DNA of 39,453 nt, from NCBI GenBank assembly GCA_905479505.1, contig CAJQMS010000075.1, forward strand, positions 1 through 39,453, in the 5' to 3' direction. This DNA comes from an uncultured Burkholderiales Genera incertae sedis bacterium (GTDB lineage: Bacteria > Pseudomonadota > Gammaproteobacteria > Burkholderiales > Eutrophovitaceae). This document shows, piece by piece, positions 1 to 11,981 of the stretch (the stretch's first letter is position 1; every line of letters starts with the position of its first letter). The notes beneath the pieces were generated by a model, which was not told the origin of the DNA, did no database searches, and saw only the letters and a list, made by a program, of their open reading frames with translations. The translations under genes were made by a program, and so were the position numbers.

Positions 1-3000
1 TGATTTCCTCAGGAGATCCTGATGAGATAATCTCGCCACCTTCGATACCCGCACCTGGCCCCAAATCAATTACAAAGTCAGCCCTATTAATTGTATCCTC
101 ATCGTGTTCCACAACTACCAGAGTATTACCATTATTTTGTAAATGTTTAAGAGCCTTTAAAAGCACCTCGTTATCTTTTGGATGCAAACCAATAGTAGGT
201 TCGTCGAGAACGTAAACTGCGCCTCTAAGGTTAGAGCCCAATTGGGCTGAAAGCCTCATCCTTTGTGCCTCGCCCCCACTTAGCGTTGGCGCGGCCCTAT
301 TCAAAGTAAGATAAGATAGTCCCACTTCAGTCAGAAACTGCAAGCGAGACAAAACCTCGGTTAGTAAGTCTTTAGCAATCAGTTTCTCTCTATCCGATAA
401 CTCAATCCTTGACAGGATGTGAAATAATGTACCGACAGGCTTGGAAACTAAATCTACGATCGAAAAGTCCTTCCAAATAACGTTTGCTGCTTGCTGATTT
501 AAACGAAAACCAAGACAGGTATCACATGTGGCCGATACTTCATCGTGAACATGCCTATCGCGTTCCGACTCCGCCTCAATTTCATCTCTCAAACTTTTAA
601 CAGGAACGGATTTGTGAGTAAGGACCTGACCGGTCCCTTGACAAGGGTCACACCATCCGTACTTTGAGTTGAACGAGAACATACGCGGGTCTAGTTCATC
701 ATAGGATTTTTGACATTTGGGGCACGCTCGTTTTATTGAAAAACTTTGCTGTTGAAAAAGCCCACCCTGAAGTAAGTGATCAAGATCAGAAATGACATGA
801 AAAAAACCGTTACCGAATTCCAAAGCCTCTTCAACAATATTATTTAATGCCTCAGTTTTAGATTGATCCACCTTGATGCTAGCAACCGGAAGGTCTATTG
901 TGTGCTCCACGTAACGGTCCAGTCTTGGAAAATCCTTAGTTTCTATAAAAACGTCATCAACCAATAGGTGTGTGTAACCTTTTTTTCGATAACTCTCCGC
1001 CAAGTCTTTGTAGACTCCCTTTCTTGCTCGTACTAACGGCGCTAAGAAGCCAATATGAACTCCCGCGTAATCACTCATCAGCTTGTTTACGATGATAGAT
1101 TGCGTTTGAGGCTCAATCTTTACATCACACTCAGGGCAGTATTGATCACCAACCTTGGACATTAATAACCTAAGGTAGTGGTAGATCTCTGTGACAGTTC
1201 CTACCGTACTTTTAATCCCACCGCGGCTGGTCCGTTGCTCGATGGCAACTGCAGGGGGTATACCGAAAACCGCATCCACATCAGGCTTCGTTCCGACTTG
1301 AATAAATTGGCGCGCATATGCATTCAAGGACTCTAAATACCGTCTTTGACCTTCGCCGTAGATTATGTCGAATGCCAACGAAGATTTACCACTGCCGCTA
1401 AGCCCAGAAATAACGGTCATCTTCTCATGAGGAATCTCAGCACAGATACTCTTTAAGTTATTTTCTCTCGCATTTTTAATCGAAATTGAACTTGGCGGCA
1501 TCTCATTTTTGGAGACCACCTGATGTGACGATTGATCTTTATTGATAAATCCCAAACCATCATTTACTCGAGCTAATTCAATTCCTGTTAACGACGATTG
1601 ATGATCAACTATGGCATTCGGCGTTCCGCAAAAGACGACCTTTCCGCCCCCTTCGCCACCCTCCGGCCCTAAGTCAATGATCCAATCGCAAGAAGCTATC
1701 AAATCGAGGTTATGTTCGACCATCACCACCGACGCGCCGAAATTGACTAACGTACGAAGAGCTATGAGTAATTTTTGAACGTCCTGATAGTGAAGACCTG
1801 TTGTTGGCTCGTCGAGTAGAAAAATTGTTTTTTCAACTGCTCCACTAGAAGCTTCAGCAATGTAACTCGCGAGTTTCAGTCGCTGAGCCTCACCTCCTGA
1901 AAGCGTGGGTACTGGTTGTCCAAGTCGAAGATACCCTAGGCCTACATCGATCAAAGGCTTAAGCTTGTTACAAATTTTAGGGTCGTCTTTAAACGCTCGA
2001 ATGGAGTCCGAGATTGTTAAATTTAAAACGTCGTCAATATTTACGGTCCCGACAGTTGGTAGGTCGATATATATTTTCAAAATATCTGAACCGTAACGTT
2101 TACCATCGCATTCATTACATCTCAGATAAACGTCTGATAGGAATTGCATCTCAACCAGCTCGAAACCACTACCCGAACATGACTGACATCGTCCTTTGCC
2201 AGAATTGAAACTGAAAAATCCTTTATCGAACTTCGCTTGTTTCGCCGGAATGGAATTTGCAAAAATAGTTCGTATTCCGTCTAAAGCGCGGACATAACTC
2301 ACAGGATTTGATCGCGAAGATTTTCCAATTGGCCTTTGGTCTAACAAAATGACACGATCAATTAACTCTATATTTTTAAACCCCTCCAACCCGTCAGTTG
2401 AAACACCCTTTCCCACTAAAACTCTCTCGATTTCATTGGATAAGATATCTTCTAGAAATGTTGATTTCCCGGACCCAGAAACCCCTGTAATAGCGACTAG
2501 ATGCCCCAGTGGAATGTCAATATCGATATTTTTTAAGTTATTTCGCTGCGCGCCCAAAACACTGAGCCAATGAGTTTGTCCAGCCATAATTGGCTTACAG
2601 GATGAAGCGTCCCTGACAGACTTGTGACCTAATAGATATTGAGCGGTAACACATGCATCAACTGTAAGATCTTGTAACCGGCCAAAATACTCAATATGTC
2701 CTCCACGCTCCCCCGCCTCCGGCCCAATATCTAACAAATAAGTAGCAGCGCGAATTATTTGTGGGTCATGTTCAACGATTACAATAGTATTTCCATTTCG
2801 CTTGAGCCTCTGAATAACTGAGATGATTCTGTTTATATCCCTCGGATGCAAACCGATGGATGGCTCATCCAGTAGAAATAGGGTCTGAGTCAGTGATGCC
2901 CCTAGAGCGGTCGCTAAATTCAGGCGCTGGACTTCACCGCCAGATAACGTTCTAGATTGCCGGTCAAGAGTCAAATAACCGAGCCCAACTTCCTCTAAAA

Positions 3001-4435
3001 ATTCAAGTCTCGATACAATTTGATCCAGCACTAACTGACTTGAATCGTCTCCATCAACTTCGTGCCACTTGTGTTTTTCGGTATTTATAAACCGCTTCAA
3101 ATCCCAAACTGAAATGACATTCAAATCGTGTATCGAAAAGCCGTTAATACGGCTTTTCTGTTTAAGACTCCAATCAATTTCAGGATACGTCGTAACAGTC
3201 GCCAATGGGTCAGGATCAGACTTTTCGGATCCAATCCGCCATAGCAACGCACTCGATTTCAAACGACTACCGAGGCATTCAGGACATTCCGTGTATGAGC
3301 GATATTTTGCTAAAAGCACACGGATATGCATCTTATATGCCTTAGTTTCTAACCAATCAAAAAATCGTTTCACTCCGTACCAATGTTTCGGCCAAGACTT
3401 TCGCCAACTCAGCCATTCAGGCTCACCCTCCAGCACCCACTTCTTATGATTGACTGTCATATCAACCCAAGGTTTATCGATAGGTATACCCCGCCGGTGA
3501 GCTTGCTCAATGAGCTCATCCTGGCAATCGGAATAACTGGCTGTTTGCCATGGCTTAATCACACCCTGGGCAAGAGATAAACGCGGATCCATAATCACAG
3601 AGTCCATATCGACACCGATCACCCGTCCAAACCCACGGCAAGTTCCGCATGCGCCCACTGGAGAGTTAAACGAAAACAGACCTGGGCTAGGTGCAGAATA
3701 ATCAATATCGCAAGACGCACAGTGAAAGCGATTACTGAACTCTAATGGTTGTTCAACCTTTTGGTCAGGTGCGTGAGGCGCAACCAAACAGTTTCCTTGG
3801 CCAACACGGAATGCCGCCTCAAAGGCTTCCCTCAATCGCGTCTCGTCGACCCGATTCACGTCAAAGCGATCAACTACAACAAGACTCTTCTCATCTAACT
3901 GGACAAAACGGTCATAACCTTGAGCTGTCAAATAACCTTCGATTTCCGATTGTGAGAAATTTTCTGGCACTATCACCGGAGCGTAAACGACTATCCGGCC
4001 CCATTTTTGATTTCGTACACTATTAACCATTGAATCGATTCCATCGATTTCGACGGGCTGTGCGCACTTGCGACAGTGTAATTTAGCAAACTTCGAAAAA
4101 AGTAATTTCAGATAATCTGACAGTTCAGTCATGGTGCCGACAGTCGACCTAGAGGTCTTCACAGAATTTACCTGGCGAATGGCAATCGCAGGAGGAATAC
4201 CTTCAATGCTTGCCACCGAAGGTCTGTCCATGCGGTCTAGGAACTGCCGCGCATAAGACGAAAACGTCTCGACATATCTCCTTTGTCCCTCTGCGTACAA
4301 GGTATCAAAAACTAGAGAAGACTTGCCCGATCCGGACACTCCTGTGACTGCCGTGATTTCGCCAAGAGGTATGTCTAAATCTATATTTTTAAGATTATTT
4401 TGAGTGACTCCTCTGATTTTGATATGTTTGATCAT
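1..4435 (-). CDS. Tandem-duplicated UvrA-like ABC ATPase (excinuclease ABC subunit A paralogue); 3' end lies beyond the left window edge
   Basis: Absent from the ORF track because it has no in-window stop. Reverse-strand reading from ATG at 4435-4433 gives MIKHIKIRGVTQNNLKNIDLDIPLGEITAVTGVSGSGKSSLVFDTLYAEGQRRYVETFSSYARQF... and continues to nt 1. The track lists no minus-strand fragments here, consistent with one open frame. Three UvrA-type nucleotide-binding units are visible: Walker A GVSGSGKSS / GVSGSGKST / GLSGSGKSS, ABC signatures LSGGEVQRLNLA / LSGGEAQRLKLA / LSGGEAQRMRLS, and Walker B LLDEPSIGLH / LLDEPTTGLH / VLDEPTIGLH. UvrA Zn-module motifs FSFNSPVGACGTCRGFG and FSFNSGKGRCQSCSGSG are also present. 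A second complete UvrA N-terminus (ISIKNARENNLKSI...GLSGSGKSSLAFDIIYGEGQRRYLESL) restarts near nt 1490. Confidence 0.9.
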   Translation of the reverse strand, partial: MIKHIKIRGVTQNNLKNIDLDIPLGEITAVTGVSGSGKSSLVFDTLYAEGQRRYVETFSSYARQFLDRMDRPSVASIEGIPPAIAIRQVNSVKTSRSTVGTMTELSDYLKLLFSKFAKLHCRKCAQPVEIDGIDSMVNSVRNQKWGRIVVYAPVIVPENFSQSEIEGYLTAQGYDRFVQLDEKSLVVVDRFDVNRVDETRLREAFEAAFRVGQGNCLVAPHAPDQKVEQPLEFSNRFHCASCDIDYSAPSPGLFSFNSPVGACGTCRGFGRVIGVDMDSVIMDPRLSLAQGVIKPWQTASYSDCQDELIEQAHRRGIPIDKPWVDMTVNHKKWVLEGEPEWLSWRKSWPKHWYGVKRFFDWLETKAYKMHIRVLLAKYRSYTECPECLGSRLKSSALLWRIGSEKSDPDPLATVTTYPEIDWSLKQKSRINGFSIHDLNVISVWDLKRFINTEKHKWHEVDGDDSSQLVLDQIVSRLEFLEEVGLGYLTLDRQSRTLSGGEVQRLNLATALGASLTQTLFLLDEPSIGLHPRDINRIISVIQRLKRNGNTIVIVEHDPQIIRAATYLLDIGPEAGERGGHIEYFGRLQDLTVDACVTAQYLLGHKSVRDASSCKPIMAGQTHWLSVLGAQRNNLKNIDIDIPLGHLVAITGVSGSGKSTFLEDILSNEIERVLVGKGVSTDGLEGFKNIELIDRVILLDQRPIGKSSRSNPVSYVRALDGIRTIFANSIPAKQAKFDKGFFSFNSGKGRCQSCSGSGFELVEMQFLSDVYLRCNECDGKRYGSDILKIYIDLPTVGTVNIDDVLNLTISDSIRAFKDDPKICNKLKPLIDVGLGYLRLGQPVPTLSGGEAQRLKLASYIAEASSGAVEKTIFLLDEPTTGLHYQDVQKLLIALRTLVNFGASVVMVEHNLDLIASCDWIIDLGPEGGEGGGKVVFCGTPNAIVDHQSSLTGIELARVNDGLGFINKDQSSHQVVSKNEMPPSSISIKNARENNLKSICAEIPHEKMTVISGLSGSGKSSLAFDIIYGEGQRRYLESLNAYARQFIQVGTKPDVDAVFGIPPAVAIEQRTSRGGIKSTVGTVTEIYHYLRLLMSKVGDQYCPECDVKIEPQTQSIIVNKLMSDYAGVHIGFLAPLVRARKGVYKDLAESYRKKGYTHLLVDDVFIETKDFPRLDRYVEHTIDLPVASIKVDQSKTEALNNIVEEALEFGNGFFHVISDLDHLLQGGLFQQQSFSIKRACPKCQKSYDELDPRMFSFNSKYGWCDPCQGTGQVLTHKSVPVKSLRDEIEAESERDRHVHDEVSATCDTCLGFRLNQQAANVIWKDFSIVDLVSKPVGTLFHILSRIELSDREKLIAKDLLTEVLSRLQFLTEVGLSYLTLNRAAPTLSGGEAQRMRLSAQLGSNLRGAVYVLDEPTIGLHPKDNEVLLKALKHLQNNGNTLVVVEHDEDTINRADFVIDLGPGAGIEGGEIISSGSPEEI

Positions 4436-4539
4436 ACGGTGATGTTATCTGAAACTTTTCGTTAATAAAAAACTCTATAGGTGCGATAGACTTCGTTATC
4501 AAAAATTGGTTTAAAAATGGAGGTCAAAGCACACATATT

Positions 4540-5010
4540 ATGATGAACTCTTTAAAGAAATTCGGTAAATTAATCGGGATAGAGACTGGAACGAGCGAAA
4601 CAAACCCAAATCCAGTGGAAACTCCGCGGTCAGTTGCAATTTTTCTCTATGAAGCAGCTCGAGTAGATAACGATGTGACTCCGGAGGATCTAAAAATCGC
4701 TACCGACGCGTTAGCAAGAATAGTAAACGTGACGCAAGCAAAAGCGATCGATCTCTTGCAGCACGCTTCAAGACCTGAAAATAGACCAACGTCATACCAA
4801 CCTTTAGCAAAAATCATTAATGAGCAATTTTCCTACGAGAGAAAACGTCAATTAATTAATGCTATGTGGTTAGTTGCTCATTCGGATGCTCACATCGACC
4901 CGCATGAAGATCATATAATCCGTAAAATTTCCGACCTACTTTACGTATCGCACAGAGACTTCATTCAAGAGAAAATTAGTGCTAGAGAAACGAGAAATTT
5001 GCCTCATTAG
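4540..5010 (+). CDS. TerB-family (tellurite-resistance TerB / DjlA-N-like) protein
   Basis: 156-aa ORF. The C-terminal half (RKRQLINAMWLVAHSDAHIDPHEDHIIRKISDLLYVSHRDFIQEKI) matches the helical TerB-domain pattern with acidic/His metal-ligand positions. It is divergent from the UvrA-like gene across a 104-nt spacer. Confidence 0.65.
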   Translation: MMNSLKKFGKLIGIETGTSETNPNPVETPRSVAIFLYEAARVDNDVTPEDLKIATDALARIVNVTQAKAIDLLQHASRPENRPTSYQPLAKIINEQFSYERKRQLINAMWLVAHSDAHIDPHEDHIIRKISDLLYVSHRDFIQEKISARETRNLPH

Positions 5011-6287: not shown

Positions 6288-8321
6288 GTGATGGGACTCA
6301 TTAAACACAAGCTGGCATACTTTTTTTTTCTATTCCTTAGTGCCTTTTTTAATATTCATCAAACAGCAAATGCAGCAGACTCACCACACGTAGACCTTTA
6401 CGTTACCTACGAAGAAAAAGCTGGAAAGGTCGTGGTTCACGCGACAACATTTTTGACGACTAGCGCCCCGAAATTTGTCTTATCTAACGTTGTAACATTA
6501 ACTAACGTCGAGATAGGAAATAATGCAGTTATCTATGAAGCGTCCGACTCATATCTTATCGCATTAAAAGAAGGTCAAAATAGTGCACCCATCGTCTTAA
6601 CTTACTCAATCTCACTTCCGGCTTCCAAGAAGACTGACGGCTCGACTGACCATAACGGCGGAGCAGACTGGTCGGGAGACCAAACTGGAGCGTTCATTCC
6701 AGGTAACAGAATCTGGTATCCCTTGTTTCAAGAGCCCAGTACAGCCAATATAACCATAAAAACTCGCTCTCATTTGCGCGCCGTCGCGCCAGGTCATGAG
6801 ACAGGTAGTGAGGACACGAACGGATACCGCGTCAGTACATTTGAGATGCCTCAACCGATTTTAGGAATCGATTTAATGATAGGCCAATGGTTGGTCAGTG
6901 AGAAACAATTCCAAGGAATAACGGGACGGATCATTTTACGGACCTATTTCGATGAGAATAATAGCCCATTATCCGAAGAGTATTTAGCGCTTTGTGAACG
7001 TTATATCAAATATTATGAAGAGCTGATCGGTCCCTACCCGTACACTGGTTTTGCTGTTGTATCGAGCCCGTTTCCGACCGGACTCGGTATGCCTTCACTT
7101 ACCTACATAAGCGAAAAAATACTTAAATATCCTTTCATTAAAAATAGATCTTTGCCACACGAGATTGTTCATAACTGGCTGGGTAACGGTATACGTGCAT
7201 CCTACGAATCAGGTAATTGGTCAGAAGGGTTAACCACTTATTTAGCCGACTACTGGCAAACCGAATTGAAAAGTCAGAGTGCAGCCAAAGACATGCGATA
7301 TGGTTGGCTCAGAAACTACGCATCAGTAGCAAGAGAGGATGAGCAATCTCTTAGTTCATTCTCATCGCGTCATCACACAGCATCATCCGCCATCGGTTAT
7401 GGCAAGGGGGCAATGTTCTTCCACATGTTGCGCACCGTTCTAGGTAAACCCGCGTTTATCAGTTGTATAAAAGATTTCTGGGGGTCATTTCAATTTAAGT
7501 CAGCCTCATACTCGACAATTAGAGATACCTGTCAAAAATACACGAATGCTGATTTAAACCTTTTTTTTGAAGCATGGGTTCCCACACTGGGCGCTCCCAC
7601 AATTTCCGTGGTCAAGACACCGCGAATGTCTGACAATCGTCAGCTACTATTAACCCAAGATGGTTCTTGGGTTTACAACCTTGAAATTGAATACGCATCA
7701 TTAAAAAACGAGAGTGAAATTATCACGATTCCCCTAGAAAATAAACTAACGGAAGTCAATATTCTTGAGAATAGTAAAGGAGTCGCTCAAGTTCAAATAG
7801 ACCCAAATTTTAACGTATGGCGAAATCTATATTCAGAGGAAATCGTCCCGACAATAAGAGACTTTATTGTTGCCAAAGAACCAATCTACAAGCAACTCGG
7901 CTCAAACGTCATCAATGGTCAAAAACTGATCTCAGAGTATTTTCTAGAAAATGAGATTCAAAAAAAACCTCATAAAGCTTCTGATTTATCGGAGCGGCTT
8001 GAATCTATTCACTTGGGCGATATTTCAGAAGTTAGAGACCATTTATTGCTTTCAACTCAAGCAAATGATCAACGATTCTTAACCGCGATGTCGAATGCGG
8101 ATTTTTTAATCGCATCTTTATCTCACATGAGAGGAAAGACACTTTTCATTGGCGTCTCACCAAAGATAGACGAGGAGATGCTATTTATGCTTTTATCCCG
8201 AGCGAGGCATTATGGAAAATACTCTTGGCTCACGATCAGTAGTTCCGGACAAACTTTTAGCGGAAAATGGTCTAGGGGGAAAAAACTATTCGAGTTGAGT
8301 GCATCCGGTCGTAAAAACTGA
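6288..8321 (+). CDS. Exported M1-family zinc metallopeptidase (aminopeptidase N-like) with an unassigned ~230-aa C-terminal region
   Basis: Gluzincin motif HEIVHNWLGNGIRASYESGNWSEGLTTY (HExxH plus a downstream E). N-terminal signal-like segment LAYFFFLFLSAFFNIHQTANA. The start (GTG 6288 or ATG 6291) directly abuts the ChaN stop at 6285-6287. Confidence 0.8.
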   Translation: MMGLIKHKLAYFFFLFLSAFFNIHQTANAADSPHVDLYVTYEEKAGKVVVHATTFLTTSAPKFVLSNVVTLTNVEIGNNAVIYEASDSYLIALKEGQNSAPIVLTYSISLPASKKTDGSTDHNGGADWSGDQTGAFIPGNRIWYPLFQEPSTANITIKTRSHLRAVAPGHETGSEDTNGYRVSTFEMPQPILGIDLMIGQWLVSEKQFQGITGRIILRTYFDENNSPLSEEYLALCERYIKYYEELIGPYPYTGFAVVSSPFPTGLGMPSLTYISEKILKYPFIKNRSLPHEIVHNWLGNGIRASYESGNWSEGLTTYLADYWQTELKSQSAAKDMRYGWLRNYASVAREDEQSLSSFSSRHHTASSAIGYGKGAMFFHMLRTVLGKPAFISCIKDFWGSFQFKSASYSTIRDTCQKYTNADLNLFFEAWVPTLGAPTISVVKTPRMSDNRQLLLTQDGSWVYNLEIEYASLKNESEIITIPLENKLTEVNILENSKGVAQVQIDPNFNVWRNLYSEEIVPTIRDFIVAKEPIYKQLGSNVINGQKLISEYFLENEIQKKPHKASDLSERLESIHLGDISEVRDHLLLSTQANDQRFLTAMSNADFLIASLSHMRGKTLFIGVSPKIDEEMLFMLLSRARHYGKYSWLTISSSGQTFSGKWSRGKKLFELSASGRKN

Positions 8322-8325
8322 CATG

Positions 8326-9063
8326 TTAATAACAAAATGAGTGTGACTTAAAGTCGCGCTTTGCATTTGCCAATAATTTTTTTGAAAATAAAAGAGTCTT
8401 ACTGTCCAGAACGTCTAGAAATATCCGATAAGGCGACGTTAAATCAATACACAAGAAAGCAAACCCTATAGGATCACCATATAAACGTTCAATACCTTCA
8501 AGATACAAAGCTGCCTGAATCAGGTGGCCATTGCGATTCAAACTCTTTAAAAAGCGTTTTTGATTGTTACCGGAAAACGTTTTTAGGTCGATAACGAGAC
8601 CCTTCGTAACAATGTCTGGTCTTACCCTCCATTGATGATCCGCCTGATCTTTCCAGTATATAGACCTCTCAGTGAATCCAGAGTGAATCCAGTCCCGAAA
8701 TAATTCACCTGACCACTGATTTAGCTTATCACGTGCTATTTTGAGATGACGATAGTCGGTTTGCGTTAAGTATGAGGTAAACAATTTCAGAGGCTCGGGG
8801 AAGCAACTGTTTTTCATGCCAATTGCACTGATCTGAAAATCTTCATCCTCTTCCAGCATAATTCGATGAAAGATAGCGCCAATTTGCATACGAATCGATG
8901 CATTACCGTCTCTTCTACCTACATTGCCACGAAAAGACCTTAGGTCAGAACTAGAAACAAAATCAACTTGAGCTAAGTATTCATCCAGTGTGTCTTCCAT
9001 GGCGAAACAGTCATTTGATTTAAGGTAGGTCGGCAGCGACTCCATAGATTTACTTGGATTCAA
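8326..9063 (-). CDS. PD-(D/E)XK nuclease superfamily protein (RecE/Cas4-like; resembles the DUF3799-type PDDEXK domain)
   Basis: Ordered motifs typical of RecB/RecE-type nucleases: GAIFHRIMLE, ERSIYW, RVRPDIV, VIDLKT (the D-x-K core) and QAALY (Q-x-x-x-Y). A TTG start at 9063 overlaps rlmJ by 14 nt. The alternative ATG at 9045 lies 4 nt after the rlmJ stop. Confidence 0.65.
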   Translation of the reverse strand: MNPSKSMESLPTYLKSNDCFAMEDTLDEYLAQVDFVSSSDLRSFRGNVGRRDGNASIRMQIGAIFHRIMLEEDEDFQISAIGMKNSCFPEPLKLFTSYLTQTDYRHLKIARDKLNQWSGELFRDWIHSGFTERSIYWKDQADHQWRVRPDIVTKGLVIDLKTFSGNNQKRFLKSLNRNGHLIQAALYLEGIERLYGDPIGFAFLCIDLTSPYRIFLDVLDSKTLLFSKKLLANAKRDFKSHSFCY

Positions 9064-9904
9064 GCGACGTAGTTAGGAGCCGATTAACAATAGAGCCATT
9101 TCCCGTCGGATCAAGTCTTTTTAAAATCCAGCATCCGATAATATTCACAACGGATTCAAATTGATAAGGAGGGTTGATGATTAAAAGGCCACAGGCGTTC
9201 ATCCTTCCAGCAAAATTAGCATTGGACAAATGAATCTCTGCTTGGAGCAACAATTTACTGCTATGTAACTGAAGTTTTTTAATTAATTCGTTACCACCCT
9301 CTCCATCTATCACCGGGTACCAAATGACGAAGACTCCGCTTGCGAACTTTCTTAGACCAACTTCAAGAGAAGCGGCAATTCGACTAAATTCATCTTTACG
9401 GTCATAAGAAGGATCCATGAACACTAGCCCTCTGCGTTCAGATGGTGGCAAGACAGAGTTTGTTAAAGAAAAACCGTCCTCATTACGTATCGAAGTCCGA
9501 GACCAATTTTTAGTAAGCGCTTTTAATTGAACTGAGTCTGATTTATTTAACTCATTGAGCACTAATCGGTCTTGCGGGCGCAATAGACTATGTGCGACGA
9601 CTGGAGATCCTGGATAACAGCTAAGCATATCGCCATCATTCTGCTGTTTTAATACCGATATGTACGCCTCCATTTTTTCTGGATAGTCATCCGCAGCAAA
9701 TATACGACTGACACCAAATTCATACTCTTTATTTTTCCCCGCCCAAGGGTGAGATAAATCATAAACACCTAACCCCGCATGAGTATCCACATATACGAAC
9801 GATCGGTCTTTTTTTTGGAGCGTTAAAATTAATTGTGACAAAAGAGCATGCTTAAATACATCTGCAAAATTACCTGCATGAAAATGATGTCTATATGCAT
9901 ACAT
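9050..9904 (-). CDS. rlmJ: 23S rRNA (adenine2030-N6)-methyltransferase RlmJ family
   Basis: The N-terminus MYAYRHHFHAGNFADVFKHALLSQLILTLQKKDRSFVYVDTHAGLGVYDL closely parallels E. coli RlmJ (MLSYRHSFHAGNHADVLKH...LDTHAGAGRY). Length is 284 aa. An NPPY-type catalytic motif (IINPPYQ) lies near the C-terminus. Confidence 0.85.
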   Translation of the reverse strand: MYAYRHHFHAGNFADVFKHALLSQLILTLQKKDRSFVYVDTHAGLGVYDLSHPWAGKNKEYEFGVSRIFAADDYPEKMEAYISVLKQQNDGDMLSCYPGSPVVAHSLLRPQDRLVLNELNKSDSVQLKALTKNWSRTSIRNEDGFSLTNSVLPPSERRGLVFMDPSYDRKDEFSRIAASLEVGLRKFASGVFVIWYPVIDGEGGNELIKKLQLHSSKLLLQAEIHLSNANFAGRMNACGLLIINPPYQFESVVNIIGCWILKRLDPTGNGSIVNRLLTTSLESK

Positions 9905-9925
9905 TTTTTAAGTCAGCCATTACAC

Positions 9926-10282
9926 TTAACTGAACTCAGTATATTTTTTAGCATTACCTTTACTCAAGGCAACAGGATATTTTTTTTCGTTTATTACTAA
10001 CTTCTGCTCTGCTGAGTCTATTAGGTCTATGTCTAAAATATCAGCTATACGGATTAAATAAAGAAAAATATCTGCCAACTCCAACGAGACGTCCAACTTC
10101 TTTGGCGTATCAAGAAGATACGAATCAGACTCGCTTAACCATTGAAAATGCTCCATTAACTCACAAGCCTCCACAGTCAAGGCCATTGAAATGTTCTTAG
10201 GACTATGAAATTTTTCCCAATCACGTTCTCGCGCAAATTGATTTAGCCTAGTGGCTAGAGACAGCAAAGCGTCTTTAGTCAT
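9926..10282 (-). CDS. MazG-like nucleotide pyrophosphohydrolase (small all-alpha NTP-PPase, dCTPase/XTP3TPA-like)
   Basis: 118 aa with FARERDWEKFHSPKNISMALTVEACELMEHFQW ... ELADIFLYLIRIADILDIDL ... KKYP. This is the EExxE/ExxD helical-pair pattern of MazG-type house-cleaning enzymes. Confidence 0.8.
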   Translation of the reverse strand: MTKDALLSLATRLNQFARERDWEKFHSPKNISMALTVEACELMEHFQWLSESDSYLLDTPKKLDVSLELADIFLYLIRIADILDIDLIDSAEQKLVINEKKYPVALSKGNAKKYTEFS

Positions 10283-10297
10283 TGTGAAATTGACTCG

Positions 10298-11086
10298 TTA
10301 TGTTTCTGAACTCGAGTCTGAATTCGAATCTGAACTCGAGTCTGAATTTGAGCCTGCCTGCGAGTCAACAGGCTTTCTCGGAAATCGTCTGCCAGAACCT
10401 CTCCTTCGCCTTTGTCCTGGCGACTTAGGGTTTCTGGGCTTTCCGTTTGATTCATTGTTTGGCCCCGAGTTGGATTCGTTTCCAGTTGCATTTGGTTCTG
10501 CTGTTTTCCTATTTTGCGGTCTTGAGTTGCTCCGTTTTTTTGGACCTAAGCCCAAGAGGGCGCGCATTGACTCATAACCAAAACGTTGACCCCGTTCCGA
10601 CGAGCTAGCATTCGGGCCGATCACATGCAAACTCATTAACCCCTTTTCCTTGGTAAAGTCTGCGATAACCTTTCCAGCTTGACCGGGTTGGAGCTCACCA
10701 CCGTCGATTAAACGGTATGGTTTTCCCAACTGAACACAGTAATCAAGAGCTTCCTCCGGCTCATCTTCAATATCCATGAAATAAATGATAGCCGTCCCAT
10801 CACTGTCTTTAACGTTTTGACGTATCGTGTCTCCAGTATCGGCAGCTGGGAGTTCCGTTACAGGATAGTTATCAGGAATAAATCCATCCTCAGCCATTCT
10901 TCCCTCAACACATGAACCACCACAATCCGTTCCTAATTCGAGGGCTGCGTCCAGCACCCCCCGGCTGACGCCTGTTTGTGCATTCGTAAGAATCTTCAAG
11001 CGACCACTTTGCAATCCGGATATTCCAGTTTGTCCTGAAGGTCTACTTTTTTTGATAAAACGAGAATCTCTATTATTTCTTGGCAC
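10298..11086 (-). CDS. cpYpsA-type SLOG-superfamily protein (formerly 'putative molybdenum carrier', PF12694-like) with an 82-aa disordered basic-then-acidic tail
   Basis: Core sequence: LKILTNAQTGVSRGVLDAALELGTDCGGSCVEGRMAEDGFIPDNYPVTELPAADTGDTIRQNVKDSDGTAIIYF...LHVIGPNASS. It matches the family pattern (SGGQTGxDRAALD...GGWCPKGR.AEDG.IP..Y.L.E....Y..RT..NV.DSDGT), with diverged residues TNAQTG and GGSCVEGR. GTG start at 11086 with the SD-like GAGG 6 nt upstream. The tail (residues 181-262) is Arg/Lys/Asn/Ser-rich and ends in (SDSS/SDSN) repeats. Confidence 0.7.
   Translation of the reverse strand: MPRNNRDSRFIKKSRPSGQTGISGLQSGRLKILTNAQTGVSRGVLDAALELGTDCGGSCVEGRMAEDGFIPDNYPVTELPAADTGDTIRQNVKDSDGTAIIYFMDIEDEPEEALDYCVQLGKPYRLIDGGELQPGQAGKVIADFTKEKGLMSLHVIGPNASSSERGQRFGYESMRALLGLGPKKRSNSRPQNRKTAEPNATGNESNSGPNNESNGKPRNPKSPGQRRRRGSGRRFPRKPVDSQAGSNSDSSSDSNSDSSSET
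10305..10352. repeat. 4 x 12-bp in-frame tandem repeat (tctgaaCTCGAG / tctgaaTTCGAA / tctgaaCTCGAG / tctgaaTTTGAG) encoding the Ser/Asp C-terminal tail of the SLOG protein
   Basis: Direct reading of the sequence. The units differ at only 1-3 positions. On the minus strand they translate to ...SNSDSSSDSNSDSSSET. Confidence 0.9.
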
Positions 11087-11408
11087 CTAAACCTCGATCA
11101 GCAGGAACTATAAAAAAACGCGAGCACCCTGCATGCGTGCATCTTCGTTCATAAACTACAAAAAAACGCTATCTCTTATCTCTAAACATTTCCTGGCTTC
11201 GGATCACAGACTGAAAGCATGTTCAAACACAATATGCGCTCCGTAGCGATTGTGCTCGGCCCCAGCCTATTTTGAGTTTTTCAATGTCCTGTAAGTTGCG
11301 TTCCGAGGACCCTCTGGTCACACATCGAGGCGGTTATTGACATTAACCACTACCTCTTTACTCGGATTTGTTCACAAAACTTAAGGCAAGCTTAGTTTTC
11401 TAGGCACC

Positions 11409-11436
11409 AATGTAACACTTTTAACAGTACTGTCAA
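11409..11436 (-). promoter_or_regulatory. Candidate sigma70 promoter for the SLOG-MazG-rlmJ-nuclease operon
   Basis: Minus-strand reading: TTGACA (11436-11431), a 16-nt spacer ending in TGT (extended -10), then TACATT (11414-11409). It would give a ~315-nt untranslated leader before the GTG at 11086. This is a motif match only. Confidence 0.35.
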
Positions 11437-11585
11437 ATTTTAATCGATCTCAAGATTACTATCACGACCAAACCTTGGTTTCAGAATGAACCGTCACTTA
11501 GCCTTTGTCTAACCTCCTCACGTTTGATATCCTAACCACTCTAATTTGAACTTAAGAAATTGACTAGGCAAAGAGGGACAGATTT

Positions 11586-11981
11586 ATGGCTAACGAAAAA
11601 AAATCCATCGAAGAGCTTGTAATGGATCCAACAGAATTATTCCGTGAGGAGAGCATAACTGACCGAAAAGTTGGAACAATTAGAGTTTTAACTCCGATCA
11701 GTACTGATGGCAAGCAGGACCCGAATCGGCAGACGGTTTACGCGGGGGAAACACAAATTATGACGCCGATGGGAGCCTTACCAATTGCCTTTCAAATTGA
11801 GGCCGACTCTTTGGCAACCGCCGTCGAGCGTTACGGTGATGCGGGTAAAGCCGCTGTTGAAAAAGCAGTAAAAGAGCTTCAAGAAATGAGAAGAGAGCAA
11901 GCGTCTTCTATAGTGCTGCCTGGCGGCGCACAAAGCGGCATGTCAGGTGGTGGGCCTGGCGGCGGTTTAACGATGCCATAA
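11586..11981 (+). CDS. Conserved hypothetical cytoplasmic protein with Gly-rich C-terminal tail
   Basis: 131-aa ORF with SD-like AGAGGGA 6 nt upstream of the ATG. The sequence LFREESITDRKVGTIRVLTPI...IMTPMGALPIAFQIEADSL...AVKELQEMRRE resembles small uncharacterised proteobacterial proteins. I could not assign a family name with confidence. Confidence 0.6.
   Translation: MANEKKSIEELVMDPTELFREESITDRKVGTIRVLTPISTDGKQDPNRQTVYAGETQIMTPMGALPIAFQIEADSLATAVERYGDAGKAAVEKAVKELQEMRREQASSIVLPGGAQSGMSGGGPGGGLTMP

Follow-up and report, generated by a model that had tools for sequence, protein, structure and literature searches.

RlmJ of Escherichia coli is a 23S rRNA m6A2030 methyltransferase in which residues Y4, H6, K18 and D164 have been shown to be essential, and which showed no activity when its substrate was supplied as single-stranded DNA (PMC3814359). 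The E. coli gene is flanked by prlC and gor, and none of its neighbours encodes a MazG, nuclease or SLOG protein. Nucleotide-centric conflict systems are among the settings in which SLOG domains are found (summarised in PMC6459960); the cpYpsA type is usually a stand-alone protein of ~150 aa. Here we describe an array of genes for a cpYpsA protein, a MazG-like pyrophosphohydrolase, an RlmJ and a RecE-like nuclease, found in a 39,453-nucleotide contig (the window, by which we mean the whole stretch analysed) from an uncultured Burkholderiales bacterium, which belongs with the Betaproteobacteria and not with the Gammaproteobacteria. A preliminary description of this DNA took the array for a nucleotide-centric modification/conflict or restriction-modification-like module. 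That proposal did not hold up, and we conclude that the array is probably a piece of chromosomal backbone passed on by vertical descent, a lineage-specific run of housekeeping genes and not a defence system.

The four genes are co-directional on the minus strand, in the order cpYpsA (10298-11086, 262 aa), MazG-like (9926-10282, 118 aa), RlmJ (9050-9904, 284 aa) and RecE/DUF3799 nuclease (8326-9063, 245 aa from TTG 9063 or 239 aa from ATG 9045). ORF calls and sequence reading agree with the preliminary description on these coordinates and on the tight, operon-like packing: the spacers are 15 nt (cpYpsA/MazG) and 21 nt (MazG/RlmJ), and the RlmJ/nuclease junction is either a 14-nt overlap (TTG 9063) or a 4-nt gap (ATG 9045). 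Because conservation among orthologues starts near nuclease residue 25, ATG 9045 and ATG 9000 are equally plausible starts. The nuclease stop lies, as had been noted, 4 nt from the end (8321) of a convergent peptidase-M1 gene. Upstream of the array, the region 11087-11585 (499 nt) is indeed the large non-coding stretch that had been called the only one, being the sole gap of more than 200 nt in the window; what look like further gaps contain a UvrA-like ORF (2-4444, minus strand, running off the window) and a DUF1840-like ORF of ~100 aa. On the far side of this gap is the divergent ORF p131 (11586-11981, plus strand, 131 aa), which has no match in Pfam, NCBIfam, PHROG or PDB; we list it as context, not as a member of the unit.

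A sigma-70-type promoter is predicted at 11409-11436 on the minus strand (TTGACA-16 nt-TACATT with a TG extended -10, 10/12 matches), the top-ranking promoter-like site in 8200-11700. Eight relatives share its -35 and -10 blocks without change, in an intergenic alignment whose mean column identity is only 51%, and of 38 lineage loci examined, 26 have the same motif upstream of cpYpsA, at a distance of 311-358 nt. The preliminary description placed the upper bound of the array at 11436, precisely where this conserved -35 hexamer begins. From the promoter to the cpYpsA start there would run a 5' leader of ~315-320 nt (11087-11402, minus strand). In the relatives' alignments it holds conserved, mutually complementary blocks, AUCCGAGU and GUCCUCGG(G/A)A; a hairpin predicted ~35 nt before the cpYpsA start codon is also predicted in six of eight relatives, and a GAGG Shine-Dalgarno lies 6 nt before the GTG start. 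The consensus fold of the leader is weak (-1.8 kcal/mol; whole-leader z-score -1.64), an Rfam search of it gave no match even at E = 10, and no conserved upstream ORF was found in it. Within the array no internal promoter or terminator rose above shuffle expectation. The conserved sigma-70-type promoter and the ~320-nt leader suggest one transcription unit, and we infer that the site at 11409-11436 probably drives the array and that the four genes are probably co-transcribed.

All four domain assignments of the preliminary description were upheld, each scoring above its Pfam gathering score: cpYpsA (PF12694, 98.6 bits, E = 3.5e-28), MazG-like (PF12643, 42.4 bits, E = 8.6e-11), RlmJ (PF04378, 229.5 bits, E = 5e-68) and DUF3799 PD-(D/E)XK nuclease (PF12684, 48.9 bits, E = 9e-13).

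The cpYpsA protein has an acidic Rossmann-like core (residues 30-178), to which the window form, relative to the usual one, adds a 29-aa N-terminal extension (residues 1-29; basic, disordered, pI 12) and a C-terminal tail (residues 179-262, 84 aa; basic, Ser/Asn-rich, disordered, pI 11.4) that carries the conserved motif GQRRRRGSGRRF. In the AlphaFold2 model pLDDT exceeds 90 in the core and is ~50 in the tails. The protein matches PDB 3imk, a 'putative molybdenum carrier protein' from Syntrophus aciditrophicus, in sequence (7e-14), and its core superposes on that structure with a Foldseek TM of 0.89 and an rmsd of 1.6 A. Aligned with the PF12694 family it keeps 14 family-invariant positions. 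The family's GVDR becomes GV(S/G/T/A)R in long forms (GVSR in the window), and six of seven long forms have GG(S/A/Y/R) where the family has GGW, the exception being P0025, which retains GGW. This tailed long form, which occurs solely with these neighbours, is the array's one unusual part.

The methyltransferase gives a gap-free, full-length alignment with E. coli RlmJ (YhiR, PDB 4blu; E = 3.4e-65), at a similar length (284 aa versus 280-289 aa). It retains all four residues essential in the E. coli enzyme (Y4, H6, K18 and D164) and also has D143-G-F (motif III) and W195 (motif VI). Motif IV (residues 164-167) reads DPSY in place of the E. coli DPPY; among the nearest homologues it is DSSF in 82, DPSF in 20, DPSY in 10 and DPAF in four, and DPSY is, going by these sequences, within their normal range. 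The 'NPPY motif' reported earlier does exist, as a C-terminal INPPY that aligns with INPPW of E. coli; it is not the catalytic motif IV, which is the DPSY just described. On the alignments examined, the methyltransferase is an ordinary vertical housekeeping RlmJ orthologue.

Structure and profile matches identify the MazG-like protein as an all-alpha NTP pyrophosphohydrolase of the DCTPP1/RS21-C6 type, with the metal-binding motifs E38-x-x-E41 and E68-x-x-D71 readable in its translation. It matches mouse and human DCTPP1 structures at E = 8e-21 over residues 14-117, compared with which it has the bacterial minimal length of 118 aa, and PHROG 3301 'pyrophosphatase' at 5e-16. Very similar stand-alone copies are present in Gammaproteobacteria.

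The nuclease is matched by PHROG 412 'exonuclease VIII' (1.4e-24) and by the NCBIfam exodeoxyribonuclease VIII model (1.3e-5, well below that model's cut-off). The motif series reported for it earlier is intact (in 245-aa numbering H66, E132, D150, D159-x-K161 and Q183...Y187), and these catalytic residues are conserved in seven orthologues with the sole exception of E132, which is Asp in one. RecE (3h4r) is matched in sequence at 0.01, with a PD-(D/E)XK core in which RPD, DxK and QxxxY align, and is the top structural match (Foldseek 4e-6, from a low-confidence nuclease model). Compared with RecE, the window protein is the nuclease domain alone (~240 aa), is chromosomal and has no adjacent RecT-like annealing partner. 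Its subfamily is small, with five representative clusters at E <= 1e-30, 155 at <= 1e-10 and 3341 at <= 1e-3.

The four-gene set is found only in one lineage of uncultured Burkholderiales, in which the flanks are also collinear: infA, a CoA-transferase gene and p131 on one side, and peptidase M1, Cofac_haem_bdg, TerB and UvrA-like genes on the other. Wherever a lineage locus extends far enough upstream, p131 adjoins long-form cpYpsA. The order cpYpsA, MazG, RlmJ, nuclease is still seen where identity has fallen to 40% for cpYpsA and 29% for the nuclease. Interrupted arrays belong to deeper, high-GC relatives. Of the three internal junctions in L127, only RlmJ/nuclease is intact: an Omp85-family gene of 637 aa, read from the other strand, separates cpYpsA from MazG, and an ORF of 193 aa, whose DUF6647 match is below threshold, separates MazG from RlmJ. 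The same Omp85 gene follows cpYpsA in L026. In L126 a PALP+CBS (cystathionine-beta-synthase-like) gene comes between RlmJ and nuclease, a pair contiguous in all other lineage members; this locus keeps three of the genes with no detectable cpYpsA. With junctions interrupted in deep relatives, adjacency within the block is kept no better than in the flanking backbone.

Elsewhere the families go separate ways. None of 69 short-form cpYpsA loci from many phyla had RlmJ or the nuclease within 10 kb, and two of them, apparently syntenic with each other, had a MazG-like gene ~4 kb away. Some 20 loci with nuclease homologues (27-32% identity) had no RlmJ nearby and were surrounded by TPR, glycosyltransferase, GGDEF/EAL and Fe-S genes; three of three other Burkholderiales RlmJ loci were without any partner gene. 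The RlmJ of the high-GC linked group has 53-66% identity to unlinked Burkholderiales homologues versus 40-46% to the window's group, and its nuclease 43-52% versus 27-39%, an orthology pattern that looks vertical. Co-occurrence limited to one lineage, with the families scattered elsewhere, is essentially the outcome that the preliminary description had named as counting against its module; its caveat that the linkage may be fortuitous was sound.

Since the four genes are together only in this one group, the array looks like inherited, compacted, ordinary chromosome. In a low-GC compact genome, four individually widespread nucleic-acid or nucleotide housekeeping genes would have become packed head to tail and would be transcribed together from the promoter at 11436-11409 through the leader. 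Each product would keep the job that we infer from its family: RlmJ would methylate A2030 of 23S rRNA, the DCTPP1-like MazG would hydrolyse non-canonical (d)NTPs, the RecE-like nuclease would process DNA ends, and the tailed cpYpsA may bind or process nucleotides while tethered to nucleic acid through its basic tails, with no sensor-modifier-effector logic connecting the four. Some observations run against this backbone reading. Gene order persists to low identity, and RlmJ and the nuclease part company only in L126; the long-form cpYpsA is exclusive to this neighbourhood; the nuclease active site is under purifying selection; the tight spacing and the long leader with its single conserved promoter would suit co-regulation; and all four products act on nucleotides or nucleic acids, a theme more coherent than that of the flanking genes.

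Apart from the selection on the nuclease, these same features, along with Arg-rich disordered tails that resemble nucleic-acid-binding extensions, speak for a co-regulated housekeeping operon whose products cooperate in nucleotide/nucleic-acid quality control or ribosome biogenesis. The tailed cpYpsA might, for example, have as its target ribosomal particles, or nucleotides set free from modified RNA or DNA; the removal of modified (d)NTPs would then fall to MazG, and repair or turnover to the nuclease. We consider such cooperation unlikely, if worth keeping in mind: co-transcription is lost in deeper relatives, where genes have been inserted, one of them on the opposite strand, one relative keeps the rest without detectable cpYpsA, no gene pair recurs outside the lineage, and there is no documented biochemical link, a literature search for RlmJ together with MazG having found no paper.

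A DNA-uptake or catabolism module, in which the nuclease degrades incoming DNA, MazG cleans modified nucleotides and a DprA-like SLOG protein handles single strands, would echo the phenotype formerly ascribed to yhiR ('use of DNA as nutrient'), the deposited title of 2oo3, an RlmJ homologue from Legionella ('Protein involved in catabolism of external DNA'), faint DprA (PF02481) matches in some short cpYpsA proteins and the RecE-like character of the nuclease, but it is very improbable given that RlmJ function is established as rRNA methylation (PMC3814359), that the neighbourhood has no competence, pilus or transporter genes and that the linkage is restricted to the lineage.

The defence reading, in which SLOG sensor, NTP hydrolase, adenine methylase and nuclease effector would form a nucleotide-sensing, modification-dependent defence or conflict system, has very little chance of being right. 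It draws on the known place of SLOG domains in conflict systems, on the frequency of DUF3799 nucleases and MazG-like pyrophosphatases in phages, and on the superficial resemblance of a methylase beside a nuclease to restriction-modification. Against it, no PADLOC defence-system model matches the array, and searches of plasmid and phage DNA gave no counterpart; the array lies in conserved chromosomal backbone and its presence does not vary among close relatives. No tRNA or Rfam element was found in the window. The methylase is orthologous to RlmJ, down to the N-terminal catalytic tail specific to that family, whose E. coli member did not act on its substrate in DNA form (PMC3814359), and the independent cpYpsA and nuclease-subfamily loci show no partner association. 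On paper the array is like a Type II restriction-modification system in that a methyltransferase adjoins a PD-(D/E)XK nuclease, and like SLOG-containing conflict systems (e.g. Thoeris ThsA) in that it includes a SLOG domain. It differs from both in having neither an island-like or mobile context nor recurrence across taxa, and in that its methyltransferase is the orthologue of an rRNA enzyme.

Open reading frame (ORF) calling confirmed the four minus-strand genes of the preliminary description: cpYpsA (10298-11086, 262 aa), a MazG-like gene (9926-10282, 118 aa), RlmJ (9050-9904, 284 aa) and a nuclease gene (8326-9063, 245 aa). The sequence likewise agrees with the junctions reported there: spacers of 15 nt between the first and second genes and 21 nt between the second and third, an RlmJ/nuclease junction that is either a 14-nt overlap (TTG at 9063) or a 4-nt gap (ATG at 9045), and a nuclease stop codon 4 nt from the end of a convergent peptidase-M1 gene. 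The domain calls held, with matches to cpYpsA, MazG-like, RlmJ and DUF3799 families all above Pfam gathering thresholds, as did the claim of a single large non-coding stretch: 11087-11585 (499 nt) is the sole gap above 200 nt, the remaining apparent gaps being occupied by a UvrA-like ORF extending past the window edge and a DUF1840-like ORF of ~100 aa. GC content shows a modest dip, at 37-40%, across the MazG, RlmJ and nuclease genes (8326-10282); the window as a whole has 44.9% and cpYpsA 47%, and no other sign of horizontal transfer accompanies the dip.

The UvrA-like ORF (2-4444, minus strand) is very large and divergent from a TerB-domain gene (4540-5010). In relatives it encodes 1855-1859 aa, with UvrA_DNA-bind, UvrA_inter and ABC domains. 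It is a giant UvrA paralogue, unusual and conserved in the lineage, the uncultured Burkholderiales group that shares the array.

The cpYpsA product scores 98.6 bits against PF12694 (cut-off, 26.2). Its core (residues 30-178) was modelled by AlphaFold2 with pLDDT >90, and a Foldseek search with the model, a check proposed earlier, returned the expected circularly permuted YpsA Rossmann-like fold, superposing on 3imk with a TM score of 0.89. Disordered basic extensions flank the core (residues 1-29, pI 12; residues 179-262, pI 11.4), and the C-terminal one contains the conserved motif GQRRRRGSGRRF. We refer to this tailed protein as the long form, as distinct from a stand-alone short form of ~150 aa. 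In alignment, all seven long-form proteins have GV(S/G/T/A)R in place of the family's GVDR (GVSR in the window) and six have GG(S/A/Y/R) in place of GGW, with 14 other invariant positions retained; these replacements suggest an altered ligand or chemistry relative to the short form. That the lineage carries a distinct tailed form is potentially useful, given that we know of no function for the cpYpsA family; a literature search found the name ‘cpYpsA’ only in an unrelated context. A second cpYpsA-like match in a Halioglobus MAG (locus L057, 4512-5990) lies inside an open frame of ~490 codons, which may encode a cpYpsA fusion protein.

The MazG-like protein matches PF12643 (42.4 bits; cut-off, 27) and the solved mouse and human DCTPP1 (2a3q, 6sqw; E = 7.8e-21). 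Its metal-binding motifs, ExxE...ExxD, read from the translation as E38xxE41 and E68xxD71. It is a predicted all-alpha NTP pyrophosphatase of the DCTPP1/RS21-C6 type.

The RlmJ family is characterized by m6A formation at A2030 in helix 72 of 23S rRNA and by a single housekeeping gene copy per genome. The RlmJ of the window scores 229.5 bits against PF04378 (cut-off, 27) and aligns gap-free over residues 1-272 with E. coli RlmJ (4blu; E = 3.4e-65). Its N-terminus, MYAYRHHFHAGNFADVFKH, includes Y4, H6 and K18 of the motif X tail; these and D164, also present, are the residues found essential by mutagenesis in the E. coli enzyme, which was inactive on ssDNA (PMC3814359). D143-G-F and W195 are present as well. 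The ‘NPPY’ that the preliminary description took as the methyltransferase motif is a C-terminal INPPY, aligned with INPPW in E. coli, and is not motif IV. In monomethylating m6A methyltransferases a motif IV of (N/D)PP(Y/F/W) is regarded as the hallmark. In the window it is DPSY (residues 164-167), with the catalytic Asp, D164, kept, and in lineage relatives it is DPSY, DPSF, DPAF or DSSF. Among the nearest homologues listed (P0052-P0171), the 117 with a readable motif have DSSF (82), DPSF (20), DPSY (10), DPAF (4) or DASF (1) and none has PP, so the change in motif IV is a trait of this RlmJ branch, not of this operon. RlmJ orthologues of this branch without the PP of the textbook motif are noteworthy in themselves.

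The nuclease matches PF12684 (DUF3799; 48.9 bits, cut-off 26) and PHROG 412, ‘exonuclease VIII’ (E = 1.4e-24). Its motifs are intact, as had been read from the sequence: H, E, D, DxK and QxxxY are kept across seven orthologues, to identities as low as 29%, save that one has Asp for Glu, and D150, D159-L-K161 and Q183...Y187, which align with RecE, are invariant in the seven. RecE (3h4r) is the best PDB match by sequence and also the best structural match by Foldseek; the latter, from a low-confidence model built on a shallow alignment (pLDDT 52), is taken only as consistent with what the sequence shows. The protein is accordingly classed by sequence as a RecE/DUF3799 PD-(D/E)XK domain, a predicted exonuclease family.

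The distribution of the array was determined from a cpYpsA-anchored scan in which each GTDB species was represented by one genome, using a narrowed cpYpsA alignment. This yielded 80 loci, each read over 20 kb and tabulated with phmmer. The tailed long form was found in 11, every one from a MAG of Burkholderiales or of unclassified proteobacteria. In nine of these, three or more of the four genes are present in unchanged order; the remaining two are cut short, with one contig (L025) stopping ~0.5 kb past cpYpsA and the other (L026) within the following Omp85-family gene. On the cpYpsA side, a divergent gene for a 131-aa protein, p131 (11586-11981, plus strand, in the window), adjoins cpYpsA in all 11; the flanks further include, where the contig reaches and matches were tabulated, infA and a CoA-transferase gene on the p131 side and genes for peptidase M1, a haem-binding-cofactor protein, TerB and the UvrA-like giant on the opposite side. 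The p131 protein has no match in Pfam, NCBIfam, PHROG or PDB. In each lineage locus its gene forms a divergent pair with long-form cpYpsA, and it is kept even in relative L126, which retains MazG, RlmJ and the nuclease and in which cpYpsA is undetectable.

The remaining 69 loci carry the short form and come from Gammaproteobacteria, Desulfobacterota, Verrucomicrobiota, Acidobacteriota and others. No RlmJ or nuclease gene lies within 10 kb of cpYpsA in any of them, and three short-form neighbourhoods read whole were unrelated to one another. A MazG-like gene is found ~4 kb from cpYpsA, with identical spacing, in two of the 69. Both loci are from gammaproteobacterial MAGs (L036, 9746-14658; L086, 9884-14865), with the MazG-like gene downstream of cpYpsA and its product closer to that of the window (E = 1e-38 and 6e-41) than are the copies of some lineage members. 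A cpYpsA-MazG pairing beyond the lineage was considered and rejected, two loci with the same spacing being not above expectation on a rough estimate; they probably represent one shared synteny or event and not independent evidence of linkage.

Anchoring on the other genes gave the same result. In nuclease-anchored scans of metagenomes and viral contigs, RlmJ adjoins the nuclease only where the backbone is the same, and some 20 loci with full-length nuclease homologues (27-32% identity) place the gene among TPR, glycosyltransferase, GGDEF/EAL and Fe-S genes. No array partners lie near RlmJ at three other Burkholderiales rlmJ genes (contigs of 255-630 kb) or at E. coli rlmJ. The conservation of the four-gene neighbourhood, which the preliminary description had put forward as a check on its module, is thus confined to one lineage with the same backbone, and elsewhere the families lie apart.

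Within the lineage the array is interrupted in the deeper, high-GC members. L127 has lost two of its three internal junctions: cpYpsA and MazG are parted by an Omp85-family gene of 637 aa on the opposite strand (the same gene comes next after cpYpsA in L026), and between MazG and RlmJ lies an ORF of 193 aa whose match to DUF6647 is weak and below threshold. In L126 a PALP+CBS (cystathionine-beta-synthase-like) gene stands between RlmJ and the nuclease. Backbone junctions kept in L127 include p131/cpYpsA, RlmJ/nuclease and peptidase M1/cofactor protein. With internal junctions broken and backbone junctions kept, adjacency within the array is held no better than that of its surroundings. The array is not an obligate operon.

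In the high-GC linked group, RlmJ shares 53-66% identity with its unlinked Burkholderiales counterparts and only 40-46% with the RlmJ of the window's low-GC group; for the nuclease the figures are 43-52% versus unlinked homologues and 27-39% versus the window's group. RlmJ and the nuclease thus behave as chromosomal orthologues that are inherited vertically and have a linkage labile in evolution, and the window's group is the fast-evolving, compact end of the lineage. Recent horizontal acquisition as an island, despite the low GC of the MazG, RlmJ and nuclease genes, is rejected on this vertical pattern and on the gene layout, which all relatives share.

The best explanation of the array is an inherited chromosomal neighbourhood which, in a Burkholderiales lineage of low GC, has become packed into an operon-like unit, and each of the four genes would most likely do the housekeeping job of its own family. 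The caveat in the preliminary description that the linkage may be fortuitous was the correct call. A compact and coherent ‘sensor - hydrolase - methylase - nuclease’ array can stem from inheritance and compaction of a backbone alone, and before a new defence system is proposed synteny should be compared with that of the flanking genes and beyond the lineage.

Real functional coupling of the four genes is unlikely, although the gene order is old, the RlmJ-nuclease junction is the most persistent and the tailed cpYpsA is exclusive to the array context; a literature search yielded nothing joining RlmJ with MazG.

Within 8200-11700 the site most like a promoter, of the sigma-70 type, reads TTGACA-16-TACATT with a TG extension (11436-11409, minus strand). 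Both hexamers and the A-rich end of the spacer show no variation among eight relatives, in an intergenic alignment that averages 51% column identity, and of 38 lineage loci examined, 26 have the motif 311-358 nt upstream of cpYpsA. This conserved position implies a leader of ~320 nt, and a conserved promoter with so long a leader is noteworthy by itself. GAGG precedes the cpYpsA start codon by 6 nt in all aligned relatives. Two conserved blocks of the leader, AUCCGAGU and GUCCUCGG(G/A)A, are complementary to each other, and six of eight relatives have a predicted hairpin ~35 nt ahead of the start codon. The consensus fold from ~9 sequences is weak (-1.8 kcal/mol, 9 pairs, little covariation), with a single-sequence folding z-score of -1.64. 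This hairpin was considered as an intrinsic terminator or attenuator and rejected: the U-run is not conserved and z-scores are modest. The leader has no Rfam match at gathering thresholds or at E <= 10 and no upstream ORF conserved among relatives as a leader peptide, and a by-eye check of the promoter found no LexA box (CTGT-N8-ACAG) common to relatives. The leader may represent a cis-regulatory RNA not described before. Sites resembling internal promoters or terminators are not above shuffle expectation, and the four genes are likely co-transcribed in this genome.

That the four products form a coupled, co-regulated unit under this one promoter and structured leader is a reading to which we give little credence. 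In one version, the SLOG enzyme (cpYpsA) would be tethered to the ribosome or to nucleic acid and work with RlmJ, or alternatively would act on N6-methyl-adenine nucleotides from modified RNA; the pyrophosphatase and nuclease would handle the resulting modified nucleotides or nucleic acid. If true, this would supply the first functional context for cpYpsA and might bring to light a new cis-regulatory RNA.

A defence or conflict role, as the preliminary description proposed, is very improbable: there is no PADLOC match, no mobile context and no recurrence across taxa. In PADLOC-DB v2, cpYpsA, MazG and the nuclease have no match and RlmJ has only a chance-level one (PDC-M41A, E = 0.0035, 15 bits); plasmid and phage DNA similarity searches gave no match, and no tRNA or Rfam element was found in the window. 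Restriction-modification systems combine a DNA methyltransferase with a cognate endonuclease and are variably present and often mobile; here the methyltransferase is the orthologue of an rRNA enzyme and the array occupies a fixed place in a collinear backbone, and such a system is rejected. RecET-type modules place the nuclease beside a single-strand annealing protein (RecT, Redbeta or ERF) in a prophage context; a phage recombination module of this type is also rejected, the nuclease neighbours being RlmJ and peptidase M1 and annealing-protein families being absent from every lineage locus. SLOG-centred nucleotide conflict systems (Burroughs et al. 2015, as summarised in PMC6459960) are those in which a SLOG gene is recurrently linked to nucleotide-generating enzymes and effectors in diverse taxa. 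The cpYpsA family of the window, with RlmJ or the nuclease near none of its 69 short-form genes, differs from SLOG-centred conflict systems in the very feature that characterizes them, recurrent linkage.
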